Notes under the pieces: model-generated
Told to the model about the DNA's origin: nothing
What the model saw: the letters and a program-made list of their open reading frames with translations, nothing else
The model's database searches: none
IMG/VR virus record: IMGVR_UViG_3300045988_008077
Direction: 5' to 3' (one strand)
Length of the DNA: 5,099 nt
From: a virus
Shown: positions 411 through 5,099 of the stretch, piece after piece
How the letters are laid out: the number at the start of each line of letters is the position of its first letter
How positions within the stretch are numbered: position 1 is the stretch's first letter
Position numbers and translations under genes: made by a program

Positions 411-2150
411 TTAGAAATGGTCAACAAGGCCAGGAGTACCAAACATAGGCATAGGTCGAACAGTAGTGTACTTGAATCCTATATCAATCAAAAATTGAGG
501 CTCGCTGGGAACAGCAATAATACGGCCTATAGGAATATCTTCCTGAATAAATTCAGGACTCAACTTAGGAGCAGTTTCAAAATACTGAGACAAATGCCAC
601 ACATCAAGATTGCCTTTGATGTTAGACCTAAATTTTCCACAAATCACAGAAGGTTTATACCGATACTCGGCATAACGTTCCTGATAGCCAAATACAGAAT
701 TATCCTGTTCGGTATCACCAGTAGCATAAATTTCCTTAAGAAGAACAGCCTGCTCGCCTAAATGAGCAAAAGTAGGCCAGTACCAATCATAAACAGTAGA
801 CCTAGTCCACATACGGTTAATACCTTGCTGATAAGTCAAATCAGCACGAGCGCAACAGAAGCCAAAAACATAACCATGCTCAACGAAAGATTTGGTAAAA
901 CCATGGAACTTAGCACCTGTAACGCCGTAAGCGGAAAGATTGCCTTGCGGTGTCGTATCGTTGGTACTAGAAGTCTGAGCAATAGGATTAATGTTCATCA
1001 TCTTAGTAAACGAACCTAAAAATTCAGGACGCTGCAGCCTGGCATCAGGAGAAACAACGCCAAAGAAAGAGCGTAAGACTTCTGTGTACCGACTACCGCC
1101 ACGAGCAAGACGTTCATAGAACTTCTGCATCTGGAAAGCAGTACGAAGACTGTTGATAGTAAAGATAGAAGATGCATCAAGATTAACGTAAGATTCACTT
1201 CCAAGCAAAGCATTGCCAGGAGTGGCAGTCATAGTAATAGAATCAGAAGAATTGCCTGCAAAACCACCAACATTCGACCAGTCAGAACCAGAACCTCGAT
1301 TAAAGGTTATAGAGCCACTACCAGAAGCTTTACGAGTACCACCAGAGCTAGAAGCACCGCCACCATAAGCAGATACAGCCGCAAGCTGATTAGACGTTGA
1401 CGAAAGGAAGAAGTTAGGCAAAGTACCTTGATTTACTATAGGAGCTGTACCAGCTAAACCTATAGACACACCGGGACCTTTCTGGGTCCAAGGAAGGGCA
1501 GAAGTAAAATAATCATGGCGCTTACCACGAGGTGGACAAGGAAGATAGGTTTCAGGAATTCCCTGAAGCCATTCAGGTTGTTCAGAAACACGGGAACCAT
1601 CAAAAACCTCGTTGGTATCACCTTTTTGAATCTTTACGGATTTCTGCAAATTTTCATCTCTGAACCACTCATTCCAGATAAGATAAACGCCACGAAAAGG
1701 AAGAGCATTAATACCAGATATAGTATTAGGAAGACCTGTAGGAAGACCAAAATAGTCCCAAAGGGTACCTACACCATGCAAGGTATCATCTGTCTTACCA
1801 ACCAAAGAAGTAGTAGGGCAAACGTAATCAGTGGAATCGTCAGGGTCCTCCTGTTCAAAGCAAAAGTTTTGCCAATGATTCCATACAAGACGATTAGGAA
1901 CGAAGAAGAAGAACCAGTCAAGGTAAATATTATCCATAATAGGCTTTACAGGAGTGGCAAGGCGAGAAAAATACCTAACCCTTAAACTGGAAGTGTCGCC
2001 AGGCAAGACCTCGTCAATAAACACAGGAATAAGCTTACCTGAATCAAAGGTAGTCTTATAAACGTGTGAGCGGTCGAACTTAGTGCGACGCATATACATA
2101 GCAGGAGCATCTGAAAAGCGATGACCTTTAACACGGATTCTACGTGACAT
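411..2150 (-). CDS. VP1: Major capsid protein VP1 (gokushovirus F-like jelly-roll capsid protein), 579 aa
   Basis: ATG at 2150..2148 with AAAGGAGT SD (complement of about 2158-2165) 6 nt upstream. Stop TAA at 411-413. The N-terminus 'RRTKFDRSHVYKTTFDSGKLIPVFIDEVLPGDT' is the signature gokushovirus VP1 motif (FDRS..KTTFD.G.LIP.F.DEVLPGDT). Its size is typical for the family. Confidence 0.93.
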   Translation of the reverse strand: MSRRIRVKGHRFSDAPAMYMRRTKFDRSHVYKTTFDSGKLIPVFIDEVLPGDTSSLRVRYFSRLATPVKPIMDNIYLDWFFFFVPNRLVWNHWQNFCFEQEDPDDSTDYVCPTTSLVGKTDDTLHGVGTLWDYFGLPTGLPNTISGINALPFRGVYLIWNEWFRDENLQKSVKIQKGDTNEVFDGSRVSEQPEWLQGIPETYLPCPPRGKRHDYFTSALPWTQKGPGVSIGLAGTAPIVNQGTLPNFFLSSTSNQLAAVSAYGGGASSSGGTRKASGSGSITFNRGSGSDWSNVGGFAGNSSDSITMTATPGNALLGSESYVNLDASSIFTINSLRTAFQMQKFYERLARGGSRYTEVLRSFFGVVSPDARLQRPEFLGSFTKMMNINPIAQTSSTNDTTPQGNLSAYGVTGAKFHGFTKSFVEHGYVFGFCCARADLTYQQGINRMWTRSTVYDWYWPTFAHLGEQAVLLKEIYATGDTEQDNSVFGYQERYAEYRYKPSVICGKFRSNIKGNLDVWHLSQYFETAPKLSPEFIQEDIPIGRIIAVPSEPQFLIDIGFKYTTVRPMPMFGTPGLVDHF

Positions 2151-2228
2151 TTTTTACTCCTTTCTAGAGTGTAAACCTTAAAAATAAACCTAAAGAAATA
2201 TTTATTAAGGTTTAGTTTAATTTTGCGT
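2151..2228 (-). promoter_or_regulatory. AT-rich leader/regulatory region upstream of VP1 with three copies of TAAACCT(T), two direct and one inverted
   Basis: taaacct at 2171-2177 and 2185-2191; inverted copy aaggttta at 2207-2214. The strong SD AAAGGAG lies just upstream of the VP1 ATG. No convincing -35/-10 pair could be identified. Confidence 0.3.
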
Positions 2229-2269
2229 CAGTCGTGCCAGTTACATCAAGTAGGTAACTGGCACGACTG
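2229..2269. other. Perfect 16-bp stem / 9-nt loop hairpin in the VP3-like/VP1 intergenic region; candidate DNA-level origin or primosome-assembly structure, or an mRNA-stabilising hairpin
   Basis: cagtcgtgccagttac (2229-2244), loop atcaagtag (2245-2253), gtaactggcacgactg (2254-2269): the arms are exact reverse complements. On the plus strand it is followed by ccgctg and a T-rich run. On the coding strand no U-tract follows it. Confidence 0.7.
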
Positions 2270-2278
2270 CCGCTGTTT

Positions 2279-2743
2279 TTATTTTTTTTCTTCATTTTCT
2301 CCTAAATTGTTACTTTCATTATTATTTTGTTCTTTTACAATAGAATCTTGTACTACGTCAGGAGTATAAAGACCGTATTCCTGAAGCAAAGTTAAAGTTT
2401 CAGGACGATTCAAACGTTGCACAAATTCCATAGGGTCATGGTTGAATTCCGCACGAAGTTTCGAAGGCAAAGTGTAGAATTCTTCACGAACGCCAGAAAC
2501 AAGGTCAAGAGCAGTTTCGTAATCGCCAGGAAGCGTAGCATCACCGAACTGGAGATACTGGTAAATATCAGTATTACCTAAATCAAGCGTAGAAACGCCT
2601 CTCTGACCGTCGCAATACTTATTGACGATATAATTGATGTCTGTCTCCTCTTTCTCGTCCTGTAGAGTAAGTGAGGGCAAATAGAACACCTTTCCATAAT
2701 GATCATGGGATTCAATATCATCATAGGGAGTCTTAAATTTCAA
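2279..2743 (-). CDS. 154-aa acidic protein, likely the internal scaffolding protein (VP3-like). TTG start.
   Basis: TTG at 2743..2741 is the first start codon after an in-frame TAG and lies 7 nt downstream of a perfect SD, AAAGGAGGTGA (complement of 2747-2757). Stop TAA at 2279-2281. Its size (about 150 aa), acidic C-terminus (ENEEKK) and position immediately upstream of VP1 fit a gokushovirus VP3. The assignment rests on size, composition and synteny only. Confidence 0.5.
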   Translation of the reverse strand: MKFKTPYDDIESHDHYGKVFYLPSLTLQDEKEETDINYIVNKYCDGQRGVSTLDLGNTDIYQYLQFGDATLPGDYETALDLVSGVREEFYTLPSKLRAEFNHDPMEFVQRLNRPETLTLLQEYGLYTPDVVQDSIVKEQNNNESNNLGENEEKK

Positions 2744-2792: not shown

Positions 2793-2823
2793 AAAAAAAG
2801 ACGCTCTCAAATGAGAACGTCTT
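2793..2823 (-). terminator. Rho-independent terminator for the minus-strand transcript downstream of the 92-aa ORF
   Basis: Stem aagacgctctc (2798-2808), loop aaat, stem gagaacgtctt (2813-2823), 10 of 11 bp paired. It is preceded on the plus strand by an A run at 2793-2799, so the coding strand reads hairpin + TTTTTTTGT. It is flanked by the inverted 6-mers agcgat and atcgct. Confidence 0.6.
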
Positions 2824-2843: not shown

Positions 2844-2872
2844 ATTTTACTCCTTTTCAGAAGATTTTGCAA
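2844..2872 (-). promoter_or_regulatory. Promoter-like TTGCAA-17-TAAAAT on the coding strand, overlapping the stop of the 92-aa ORF
   Basis: Minus strand reads TTGCAA (2872-2867), a 17-nt spacer AATCTTCTGAAAAGGAG, then TAAAAT (2849-2844). It lies immediately upstream of the terminator hairpin, so its function is doubtful. Confidence 0.2.
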
Positions 2873-3125
2873 CATAATCACGAGCTTCGCCTATAAGTTT
2901 TGGCATTACGGTGTTAAGTTCGTCATCGCTAAGGAAATAGCGACCATCCATATCGCCAATATTGCCAAGATAATAGAGAGCAAAATCATCAGGGTATTTC
3001 GAAATAGGAAATTCAGGGTTATTCACGCTCCCTTCAAAACTGCGAAGAGCAATCAAATCATTATGAGCAACATACGGTGGGCTGAAAGATTCAGCTTTCT
3101 TATCATAAACAGAGTAAATTTTCAT
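2847..3125 (-). CDS. 92-aa small protein, possibly the VP5-like DNA-binding / ssDNA-synthesis protein of gokushoviruses
   Basis: Real ATG at 3125..3123 with an AAAGGAA SD about 10 nt upstream. Stop TAA at 2847-2849. Protein MKIYSVYDKKAESFSPPYVAHNDLIALRSF... Its size and its position after Rep match VP5 in gokushovirus gene order. No motif was firmly recognised. Confidence 0.5.
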   Translation of the reverse strand: MKIYSVYDKKAESFSPPYVAHNDLIALRSFEGSVNNPEFPISKYPDDFALYYLGNIGDMDGRYFLSDDELNTVMPKLIGEARDYVAKSSEKE

Positions 3126-3375: not shown

Positions 3376-4287
3376 TTACAATTGTTTGTCAAGCTTTCTT
3401 CCAAGAAATGTTTTATACTTTCCTTCGAGACACCTGCAACGGTCAACAAGACGTTCAAACGTGTTATTTTCGAGATGAAAGAGCATTTTTTGAACACGAT
3501 TTTCTTTAACGCAGTCAATCCATTCAGGATATTTTTCGGAAAACTTCTTATCATAAAAGCGAGGAGGCCTCATCTTCCTGCCATTGATAACAACAAAATC
3601 ATTGGAATAAACATCTTGACCATACTTCTCAAGCCAAGCTGCACCAATGCCAGGCCTACGAGAAGCTACGAGAAATTCAGGGGTTCGACCTTTATAATGT
3701 TCGTTGGAATTAGAACCAGTCTGTTTTTTAACTATGTAGCGCGCGACATAAGCAGCGGCATCAAAGCTAAACTCACCGATAAGATGCATACCGTACTTCC
3801 AGACTTTACCAAAACGAGGACTAGTATAGGTATTATAGCCATCGGCACGGAATGCAAAAATTTTATCAGACAAATCAATGTTATAAAAAATGTAATGATA
3901 ATGGGGACGACCATGTAATTCACCATATTCGCCACAACCGATAAAACGAATTCCAGAACCAAACTCTCTACGAAGATTCTTCAAAAAAGTTTGATGAAAT
4001 TTCACCGACAAAGATTTATCGGCAGGCAAATGATAATTATCAAAAGTACAAGTTAAGAAATAAGCAGATTCAGACACACGAGCCTCATGCACGCATCTAA
4101 CAGCCCATTGACGTGAACGTTCTAGCCTGCAACCAAGACACTGACCGCAGGGAACACGAATAAACCTATTATCAGAAGCGAGATGAGGATTATTAGCCAA
4201 AGAACCATAGAAAGCACGATGCTGTTTACCGTTTTTAGTATACGCTCCAACAACATCAGTCATAAGCATAGGATTAAAGCAAACCAT
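3376..4287 (-). CDS. VP4: Replication initiation protein VP4 (HUH rolling-circle Rep, phiX174 gene A-like), 303 aa
   Basis: ATG at 4287..4285, stop TAA at 3376-3378. RCR motif 1 is FLTCTF. Motif 2 (HUH) is HGRPHYHYIFY. Motif 3 is AAYVARYIVKK with paired catalytic Tyr, compare phiX A 'YVAKYVNKK'. A CGQCLGCR Cys cluster is also present. Confidence 0.93.
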   Translation of the reverse strand: MVCFNPMLMTDVVGAYTKNGKQHRAFYGSLANNPHLASDNRFIRVPCGQCLGCRLERSRQWAVRCVHEARVSESAYFLTCTFDNYHLPADKSLSVKFHQTFLKNLRREFGSGIRFIGCGEYGELHGRPHYHYIFYNIDLSDKIFAFRADGYNTYTSPRFGKVWKYGMHLIGEFSFDAAAYVARYIVKKQTGSNSNEHYKGRTPEFLVASRRPGIGAAWLEKYGQDVYSNDFVVINGRKMRPPRFYDKKFSEKYPEWIDCVKENRVQKMLFHLENNTFERLVDRCRCLEGKYKTFLGRKLDKQL

Positions 4288-4302
4288 ATCATCACCGTTA
4301 CA

Positions 4303-4322
4303 GATTATAACGGATTATAACG
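4303..4322. repeat. Perfect tandem duplication of the 10-mer gattataacg; together with ccgtta at 4295-4300 it forms a CCGTTA-N7-TAACGG inverted repeat
   Basis: 4303-4312 and 4313-4322 are identical. ccgtta (4295-4300) is the reverse complement of taacgg (4308-4313, and again at 4318-4323). An inverted 8-mer copy ccgttata sits at 3357-3364, at the 3' end of Rep. Confidence 0.8.
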
Positions 4323-4332
4323 GAATTGTCAA
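4304..4332 (-). promoter_or_regulatory. Consensus sigma70 promoter for Rep/VP4: TTGACA, 17-nt spacer, TATAAT, all on the minus strand
   Basis: Minus strand reads TTGACA (4332-4327), ATTCCGTTATAATCCGT (17 nt), then TATAAT (4309-4304). The -10 lies about 17 nt upstream of the Rep ATG with a GGTGA SD in between. A second TATAAT (4319-4314) comes from the tandem repeat. Confidence 0.65.
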
Positions 4333-4438
4333 ATCCTAAATCCGCCTCGCTGTACTCTACGAAGATTTCTACGTCTGGGTCTGGATGTACGGCGGAAGAG
4401 TCGACGAGAACCTCTTCTACTAATCCGACGCCTACGCA

Positions 4439-4678
4439 TTATTTATCTCTCCAAGAACCGAAAAAACGAGAAGAACCTTTAGAAGAATCTTTTTTAGAAG
4501 AAACTGGAGTAAGAACTTCACTAACATCGGCTTGAAAGTCAGAAGCCACCTTCTTGGCAGTAACCAAGTTAGCGCTAGACTTACCTTTTAAAGCTTCAAT
4601 CAAATCTACGACTTCTTGGATAAAGGGAACGACAACAGATACGATAAAAGTAAGAATCATGGTAGTTTTGTTTGACAT
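4439..4678 (-). CDS. Small 79-aa membrane protein with one N-terminal TM helix and a basic, Ser/Lys-rich tail; candidate single-gene lysis protein
   Basis: ATG at 4678..4676 is 5 nt after the VP2 TGA stop, with a GGAAGGTG SD about 6 nt upstream. The ORF track begins at an alternative GTG at 4687. Stop TAA at 4439-4441. Sequence: MSNKTTMILTFIVSVVVPFIQEVVDLIEAL... then a hydrophilic KK/SS tail. It does not overlap the structural genes. Confidence 0.5.
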   Translation of the reverse strand: MSNKTTMILTFIVSVVVPFIQEVVDLIEALKGKSSANLVTAKKVASDFQADVSEVLTPVSSKKDSSKGSSRFFGSWRDK

Positions 4679-4683
4679 AAAAA

Positions 4684-5099
4684 TCACCTTCCAAAATAAC
4701 GTTTTCTCAAGAATCCGATGCCTTTACCAATAGCACCAGCAACACCTTTGCCAATAGCAGGACCCATGACTTTAGCATCAGCTCCAAGGTCACCAAGGGA
4801 CTTATAAAAGTCACGTTCATAGCCTGCAAGCTCCGTTTGAACATTATCAAAAGCGGCCGCAGAATTGGCACGCAAAGCAGAAGCAGTTGCATTCAAAGAA
4901 TTAGCATCATACATCTGACCGAGCTTATGAAGATTATCAATTTCAGCTTTCATGCGGTCAAATTCAAATTGTACACGCTGATCAAAAGTTTTAGTCTTAA
5001 AATCAACATCATTCTGCAAAAGCTTGTTCTGAAGGCCTGCATTAGTAGTATTAGCAGTAGCAAGACCGGCATTAGCAGAAGAAGCTTTAGCATCAGCAA
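4684..5099 (-). CDS. VP2: VP2 C-terminal part, continuous with 1..398 across the circular junction (5045-5099 duplicates 1-55)
   Basis: Open frame ...LQNDVDFKTKTF...GPAIGKGVAGAIGKGIGFLRKRYFGR* with stop TGA at 4684-4686. The 'M' given in the ORF track at 5019 is actually an internal TTG codon. The frame stays open up to the window edge. Confidence 0.8.
   Translation of the reverse strand, partial: ADAKASSANAGLATANTTNAGLQNKLLQNDVDFKTKTFDQRVQFEFDRMKAEIDNLHKLGQMYDANSLNATASALRANSAAAFDNVQTELAGYERDFYKSLGDLGADAKVMGPAIGKGVAGAIGKGIGFLRKRYFGR

Follow-up and report, generated by a model that had tools for sequence, protein, structure and literature searches.

A hairpin between genes as a candidate rolling-circle origin in gokushoviruses

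We propose that a hairpin lying directly past the scaffold gene VP3 of a gokushovirus genome is the viral-strand (double-strand) origin of rolling-circle replication, and that the phage replication protein VP4 nicks it in the loop, between G2247 and A2246. From the sequence comparisons described here, we give this reading a probability of about three in four, and the hairpin is probably one instance of an origin module common to the Gokushovirinae that we sampled. That a Rep nick site might be displayed in the hairpin loop was part of the original prediction for this DNA, and it is now the best-supported reading, owing to the identity of the loop core with the phiX174 and pC194 nick sites and to the motifs that VP4 shares with phiX174 protein A. 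What would be new is a phiX/pC194 nick core used in a rolling-circle origin, but hairpin-presented and intergenic. In the literature searched, we found neither a gokushovirus origin nor this element, and the papers found there that describe or revive gokushoviruses do not mention the origin; an early mention in the genome papers for Chp2, phiMH2K and SpV4 is possible.

The whole stretch of DNA analysed (the window; 5099 bases) repeats its positions 1-59 at 5041-5099. It is a circular gokushovirus genome with a true length of ~5040 nt, and the terminal repeat of ~59 nt is an assembly overlap. All genes of the window are carried by the - strand (Table 1), which we take to be the packaged strand, as is established for the Microviridae. 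Their order matches the VP4-VP5-VP3-VP1-VP2-VP8 order of enterogokushoviruses (PMC7062461). The intrinsic terminator located between VP5 and VP3 would split the VP4-to-VP5 block from VP3 and the structural genes. Just upstream of VP4 there is a perfect sigma-70 consensus promoter (4304-4332), which overlaps a tandem duplication of CCGTTATAAT (4296-4325) and probably drives the rep operon. We also observed a second, AT-rich hairpin at 2172-2214 (TAAACCTTAAAAA / TTATTAAGGTTTA, 13 bp with one mismatch), which is located past the main hairpin and ahead of the VP1 ribosome-binding site and is conserved in the close relatives L008-L011. This second hairpin is a candidate for a regulatory site or a complementary-strand origin.

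Table 1. Coordinates of the hairpin, its parts and the surrounding genes in the window.
Feature	Position	Strand	Remarks
Perfect 16-bp stem with 9-nt loop	2229..2269	-	arms 2229-2244 / 2254-2269, exact complements
Extended stem, 20 bp, one G.A mismatch	2225..2273	-	GCGGCAGTCGTGCCAGTTAC / GTAACTGGCACGACTGACGC
Loop CTACTTGAT	2245..2253	-	+ strand reads ATCAAGTAG
3' arm core GTAACTG	2238..2244	-	sequence kept even where its inner part is unpaired in relatives
Fixed-distance 3' box CTGACGC	2225..2231	-	consensus [CG]TGAC[AG]C in the family, 6 nt after GTAACTG
Covariance-model match to the gokushovirus element	2219..2276	-	62.5 bits, E 2.4e-14; single site in the window
VP1 major capsid gene	411..2150	-	PF02305, E 8e-161; downstream of the element in the window's lineage
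VP3 scaffold gene	2279..2743	-	stop codon 2279-2281; hairpin comes next
Canonical intrinsic terminator, 11-bp stem then TTTTTGT	2798-2823	-	between VP5 and VP3
VP5	2847-3125	-	
90-aa ORF	between VP4 and VP5 in transcription order	-	
VP4, HUH rolling-circle Rep, 303 aa	3376..4287	-	PF23343 the only Pfam match; presumed to act on the element
YVARY motif of VP4 (paired catalytic tyrosines)	3736-3750	-	
RPHYH motif of VP4	3895-3909	-	
Intergenic region with perfect TTGACA-17-TATAAT promoter	4288-4438	-	
82-aa ORF	4439-4687	-	
VP2	spans window ends	-	

The hairpin had originally been described as perfect over 16 bp with exactly complementary arms, and both its coordinates and its letters were correct on rechecking. 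The extended stem begins 5 nt past the VP3 stop codon, and the hairpin is the dominant structure when positions 2151-2300 of the - strand are folded. As DNA, this region reaches -33.4 kcal/mol, with shuffles averaging -10.5 (z = -8.9), and as RNA -48 kcal/mol for the 150 nt (z = -7.5), with none of 200 shuffles as stable in either case. The shared ACTTGAT that had drawn attention to the loop is present both there and in the phiX174 origin, which had been quoted accurately (CAACTTGATATTAATAACACTATAGACCAC at 4299-4328, with the rep_origin feature at 4306). CTTGAT is found five times in the window, with 3.9 matches expected, and its occurrence alone is therefore uninformative; the evidence for a nick site comes from its position in the loop and from its conservation.

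A blastn search with the VP3-VP1 region returned close relatives together with nine microviruses that match only at the hairpin (~50 nt, 84-91% identity), and in all nine the hairpin follows VP3. A scan with the exact pattern CAGTTACNTNCTTGATGTAACTG recovered at least 120 viral contigs of 3.3-12 kb. Among the 120 matches listed, VP1 and VP4 were both detected by tblastn in 119, at 38-91% (VP1) and 32-99% (VP4) identity to the proteins of the window. Alignment A2 was gathered partly by motif, and the invariance of the core in it is by construction. To avoid such circularity, the fair sample (alignment A1) consists of loci picked by Rep (VP4) similarity alone. A covariance model built from 76 distinct instances detected one element in 45 of these 46 Rep-selected genomes, whose VP4 proteins are 39-54% identical in amino acids to that of the window, with E-values ranging from 1e-15 to 2e-2 and mostly below 1e-7. 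The single miss, L148, is ~700 nt shorter than its close relatives and its VP3 was unmatched in tblastn; it is probably a truncated contig. No Rfam family matches the hairpin at E up to 1.

Three parts of the element keep their sequence: the loop core (Y)TACTTGAT, then GTAACTG, and then, exactly 6 nt on, the box [CG]TGAC[AG]C. The loop hexamer is CTTGAT in 36 of the 45 Rep-selected genomes with an element and CTAGAT in five, with CTCGAT, CTTGTT, CTTGGT and CTTGAC found once each. GTAA follows the core in 38/45, and the box in the form [CG]TGACA[CG] is present in 44/45. This box, a candidate Rep-binding element, is usually paired, with the outer 5' arm in the clade of the window and with a downstream GGTGTC in others. 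Of the 5' arm, only its complementarity to the 3' arm is conserved, and in many genomes just part of GTAACTG is paired with it, such that the loop widens from 9 to ~16 nt with the 3' letters unchanged. The five genomes with the CTAGAT core (L157, L159, L164, L186 and L195) form a subgroup that would offer a natural test of co-variation between origin and Rep.

Pairing in the stem is itself maintained by compensatory exchange of partners: in alignment columns 14-18 with 45-49, the pairs switch among AU, GC, CG and UA. Counted on a structure that we specified, stem covariation scores 0.251, compared with 0.121 in shuffles (0/500 reach the observed value) and 0.05-0.10 when the partners are slid. 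RNAalifold run on the MAFFT alignment gave 4 pairs only, because varying loop lengths shift the register. The conservation of loop, 3' arm and box, as opposed to a 5' arm that is only complementary, fits strand-specific recognition by a protein.

The position of the element is also conserved. Upstream, the nearest detectable gene is VP3 in 40 of the 45 genomes (median gap 100 nt); downstream, rep (VP4) comes next in 38 and VP1 in six, and in none of them does the element overlap a detected coding match. In the common order VP1-VP2-VP3-element-VP4-VP5, it lies directly upstream of rep, which is where rolling-circle origins usually sit. In the lineage of the window, the VP3-element block is found between VP5 and VP1, the element staying with VP3 despite the rearrangement. 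In two of the 45 genomes (L178 at 4111-4170 and L185 at 835-894), the element is in its usual place after VP3 and inverted relative to all genes, which would mean either that these phages package the antisense strand or that a local inversion arose in assembly. Where the order is VP3-element-VP4, the element is often directly preceded, 20-30 nt on its 5' side, by a small, short-looped GC-rich hairpin (L173, L020, L081, L172 and L189; for example GGCTCC-GGA-GGAGCC and CCCC-GAAAGA-GGGG); it is not seen in the clade of the window. In the intergenic region 4288-4438, named in the original prediction as a place where Rep might nick instead, the VP4 promoter and a short direct repeat are all that was found; it shows no match to the model and no dif-like motif.

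Cultured phages carry the same element. In Chp2, the stem CTAGCGTATAACAG encloses the loop TCTACTTGAT, followed by GGTGATAGC; the loop contains CTACTTGAT and with it the sole CTTGAT on the coding strand. phiMH2K has the stem AGTTCGGCTAC and a loop containing CTACTTGTTGTAA and CTACTTGTT, while in SpV4 the stem TGGGGCATAT and the loop ATTACTTGTTATA, which contains TTACTTGTT, are followed by TTGACGAC. The stems of the three phages are unrelated, and the loop core is the same. An E. coli chromosomal prophage has the element at 60.8 bits between a VP3-like and the capsid gene. When E. coli genomes were searched at the DNA level with the VP3 region of Intestinirhabdus, nothing matched, and a 41-nt consensus of the element matched seven genomes. 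Thus, a conserved stem and loop in relatives, the check proposed for the original prediction, is found in the Rep-selected genomes with one exception and in all three cultured genera, with a stem that covaries. Altogether the element is kept in phages of Chlamydia, Spiroplasma, Bdellovibrio, Negativicutes and Enterobacteriaceae, and conservation over such a breadth of hosts points to a partner encoded by the phage rather than by the host.

The reach of the element beyond the Gokushovirinae is partial. Of ten more distant microviruses (Rep 24-30% identical), three show (A)CTTGAT in the loop of a hairpin between genes: L231 (11-bp stem, loop GCGCCTTGATAT, then AATGACAC), L232 (loop GTATACTTGATAA) and L239 (loop CCTCACTTGATTAT, then TGACAG). 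We count a fourth, L237, as doubtful, since its intergenic hairpin presents CTCGAT on a GC-repeat stem of only 6 bp; in the remaining six, no comparable hairpin was found by these criteria.

The enzyme that would act on the loop is related to one with a known cut. VP4 contains the motifs FLTCTFD, RPHYH and YVARY, and its profile matches phiX174 protein A with 92.9% probability (E 3.7e-7), aligning RPHYH on RLHFH and YVARYIVKK on YVAKYVNKK, the catalytic tyrosine pair. Protein A of phiX cuts CAACTTG/ATA, between G and A (here and below, the slash marks the cut). Monophyly of the Rep proteins of the two subfamilies has been reported (PMC6668415), pC194-type Rep_1 origins share CTTGATA as their conserved nick site (PMC10378824), and the pC194/pUB110 and phiX174 origins, whose cleavage sites were mapped, are similar (PMC2831885). 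A homologous enzyme with the same active site, together with a conserved site, present once, that displays the same core on the strand to be cut, makes a coherent case for a nick site, and the cut at G2247/A2246 is predicted by analogy with CAACTTG/ATA of phiX174 and CTTG/ATA of pC194.

In the mechanism that we envisage, the inverted repeat would extrude as a cruciform on the supercoiled replicative form and expose C-T-A-C-T-T-G-A-T of the coding strand as single-stranded DNA. VP4, an HUH endonuclease with the YVARY tyrosine pair, would recognise the loop, the GTAACTG 3' arm and the [CG]TGACAC box, cut at the predicted position and remain linked to the 5' phosphate, leaving a 3'-OH that could prime the host polymerase. 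After one round, the hairpin would re-form on the displaced strand, the second tyrosine would cut, and the displaced strand would be sealed into a circle for packaging.

The element can be compared with several known origins. With the 30-bp origin of phiX174, G4 and alpha3 (Bullavirinae), it shares homologous initiators with HUH and Y-x-x-x-Y motifs, location on the packaged strand, and a conserved stretch of ~30 nt that runs 3' from the nick; the window reads CTACTTGATG where the phiX decamer is CAACTTGATA, an agreement of 8/10 with ACTTGAT identical. In contrast to the gokushovirus core, which is intergenic and lies in the loop of a covarying hairpin, the phiX origin is inside gene A, has no inverted repeat and needs no hairpin. 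The covariance model finds no match in phiX174 at E up to 1. A gokushovirus weight matrix ranks the phiX origin 4th of 5386 phiX positions; without the 7-mer, the origin falls at the 4.5th percentile of phiX positions (p ~0.045), and the 3' box alone gives p ~0.06. We therefore did not retain homology over the whole 30 nt: the ungapped alignment, with ACTTGAT and GAC at the same spacing, looks suggestive, but outside the 7-mer the resemblance is weak and not significant (p ~0.045).

The pC194/pUB110 (Rep_1) origins have the same nick core and resemble the element also in lying upstream of rep, as it does in most gokushovirus genomes (38/45). The gokushovirus variants L002, L006 and L070 read TTCTTGAT, which we take to be closer still to the pC194 site. 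Unlike the plasmid initiators, VP4 matches PF23343 and not Rep_1 (PF01446), and the flanking recognition sequences differ. The stem-loops of circoviruses, geminiviruses and nanoviruses and the IR-II cruciform of pT181 share with the element an inverted repeat that shows the nick site single-stranded in a loop. The nonanucleotide TAGTATT/AC of circoviruses and geminiviruses is cut between loop positions 7 and 8, and if the gokushovirus cut is at G/A, it would likewise fall between positions 7 and 8 of a 9-nt loop. Differences from these CRESS-type origins are that VP4 belongs to another Rep lineage and is without an SF3 helicase domain, that there is a single TGACAC box with no obvious iterons, and that the loop sequence is different.

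Conserved hairpins are also known in other microvirus clades. Those of the reekeekee- and roodoodoo-microviruses are intergenic and adjacent to rep, with compensatory changes in the stem and a conserved loop (PMC9865509); by this description, they resemble the element. The same study leaves their function undecided, discusses priming of the negative strand, and argues that every microvirus probably needs such a hairpin (PMC9865509). This last argument bears on the other possibility raised in the original prediction, a PriA-type complementary-strand origin at which the host priming machinery (PriA-type primosome, primase or RNA polymerase) would start the second strand, as at the phiX174 F-G hairpin (the PriA n' site) or the G4 primase site. 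A stable intergenic hairpin on the packaged strand, strand-specific in 43/45 genomes, is what such an origin would be expected to look like, and the phiX174 and G4 sites are likewise intergenic, on the packaged strand and near the capsid gene. Those sites, though, serve host factors, carry no Rep nick motif and are not known to be shared between host phyla, whereas the letters conserved here are the nick site of homologous Reps and not a known priming signal, and the same loop is found in phages of hosts from several phyla, whose priming systems differ, an observation that speaks against host-specific recognition. Conservation is centred on the loop and its 3' side, fitting a site of cleavage and binding. 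Typical single-strand origins are longer than the ~50 nt of the element, which in addition is usually directly upstream of rep. The asymmetric conservation, the place upstream of rep and the persistence across host phyla fit a phage protein better than a host factor. We regard the PriA-type alternative as unlikely.

Conservation across hosts implies a phage-encoded partner without saying which, and the element could instead be a site for VP5, VP8 or the procapsid, serving as a packaging or regulatory signal, or be an origin that doubles as one. In plasmid experiments, the 30-bp phiX174 origin was reportedly also sufficient for packaging, which would provide a precedent for such a double role. 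VP5 and VP8 have no independent support as partners, and the match to a Rep nick site would then be a coincidence, for which we estimate a chance of ~7e-4 (a 7-mer match between the 9-nt loop and the phiX decamer, 12 alignments x 4^-7). We consider this reading quite improbable.

A role at the level of RNA, as a terminator, an attenuator or a protective 3' hairpin placed between VP3 and the following gene, would suit a very stable RNA hairpin directly past a stop codon. The original prediction had already noted that no U-tract follows the stem on the mRNA strand; ACGCAAAATTAAAC is found there, and the terminator scan lists none at this place on the - strand. A U-tract is absent from the relatives as well (tail TGACACCAAA), the canonical terminator of the window is elsewhere (2823-2798), and Rfam offers no match. 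We know of no terminators that conserve their loop sequence across phyla. With the U-tract absent and the loop conserved, we rejected the terminator reading, and a function in RNA of any kind is very unlikely. Finally, a role as integration site (a dif-like XerCD target or another attP) is hardly credible and was rejected, even though element-bearing gokushovirus prophages are present in many bacterial genomes and the element lies near the right prophage end in Phascolarctobacterium faecium: the junctions there are separate dif-like sites, the right one ~75 nt beyond the hairpin, the junction is elsewhere in other prophages (between VP5 and VP3 in L229, for example), the stem cannot accommodate the 28-bp, 11-6-11 arrangement of dif, no dif-like motif was found in the window, and enterogokushoviruses integrate via a dif motif between VP8 and VP4 (PMC7062461).

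The element is also present in bacterial genomes. In P. faecium DSM 14760 (L200), a gokushovirus prophage with the order VP1...VP4-VP5-VP3-hairpin is bounded by dif-like sites, the left one at 2783-2810 (ACGTCCGATAATATATATTATGTAAAAT) and the right one at ~7325-7345, and these ends suggest XerCD-type integration in a Negativicutes host. More gokushovirus prophages were seen in Veillonella, Intestinirhabdus alba (two copies on one contig), Desulfovibrionaceae and others. At the prophage ends, no second, weaker copies of the element were found. A 49-kb contig from a Pseudomonadota MAG (L224) has two full elements (2784-2841 and 4402-4459; 66.9 and 59.3 bits) in direct orientation, separated by 1.6 kb in which no microvirus gene was detected. 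Pfam gives no match for the ORFs of 205 and 120 aa, and the pair could be an origin-flanked cassette or a satellite. Orphan half-elements that read CCTACTTGATGTAACTG......CTGACAC and are without a complementary 5' arm were found in intergenic chromosomal DNA of Bacillota and Clostridia contigs (L201 ~7689; L202 ~3174 and L214 ~2311, both reverse), with no phage genes nearby and no flanking repeats. The double copy in L224, the half-elements in Clostridia and the inverted elements in L178 and L185 raise the rather doubtful possibility that the ~30-nt module of loop, 3' arm and TGACAC box is a portable, Rep-addressable origin that also works outside phage genomes. Together, these cases would be consistent with satellites or cassettes that a gokushovirus Rep mobilises, with integration by Rep at pseudo-origins, and with antisense-strand packaging in some microviruses.

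We also encountered the element as a CRISPR spacer. Arrays in Marinomonas arctica (L211, 6600-7400; 13 repeats with 60-nt spacing) and Natronospirillum operosum (L210, 3200-3900; 66-67-nt spacing) each include one spacer that is the element itself, TACTTGATGTAACTGGTCTGAGTGACACCATC in L211, and the two spacers share their start base, right after the loop CC. Both surfaced through a motif search and support no claim of a targeting hotspot.

In viromes from the gut and the environment, gokushoviruses rank among the most abundant phages with single-stranded DNA. If our reading is correct, they would gain a defined origin candidate of ~50 nt with a predicted cut site, and because E. coli prophages related to the cultivable EC6098 system also carry the element, assays of nicking and of plasmids with two origins would be straightforward. 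The element would provide a natural zero coordinate and a strand marker for thousands of metagenomic microvirus genomes, and a function as origin would explain why CRISPR spacers can target this invariant site. It would also mean that a loop can display the nick sequence of phiX and pC194, much as the CRESS-DNA viruses of eukaryotes display theirs, linking two origin architectures used by HUH initiators.
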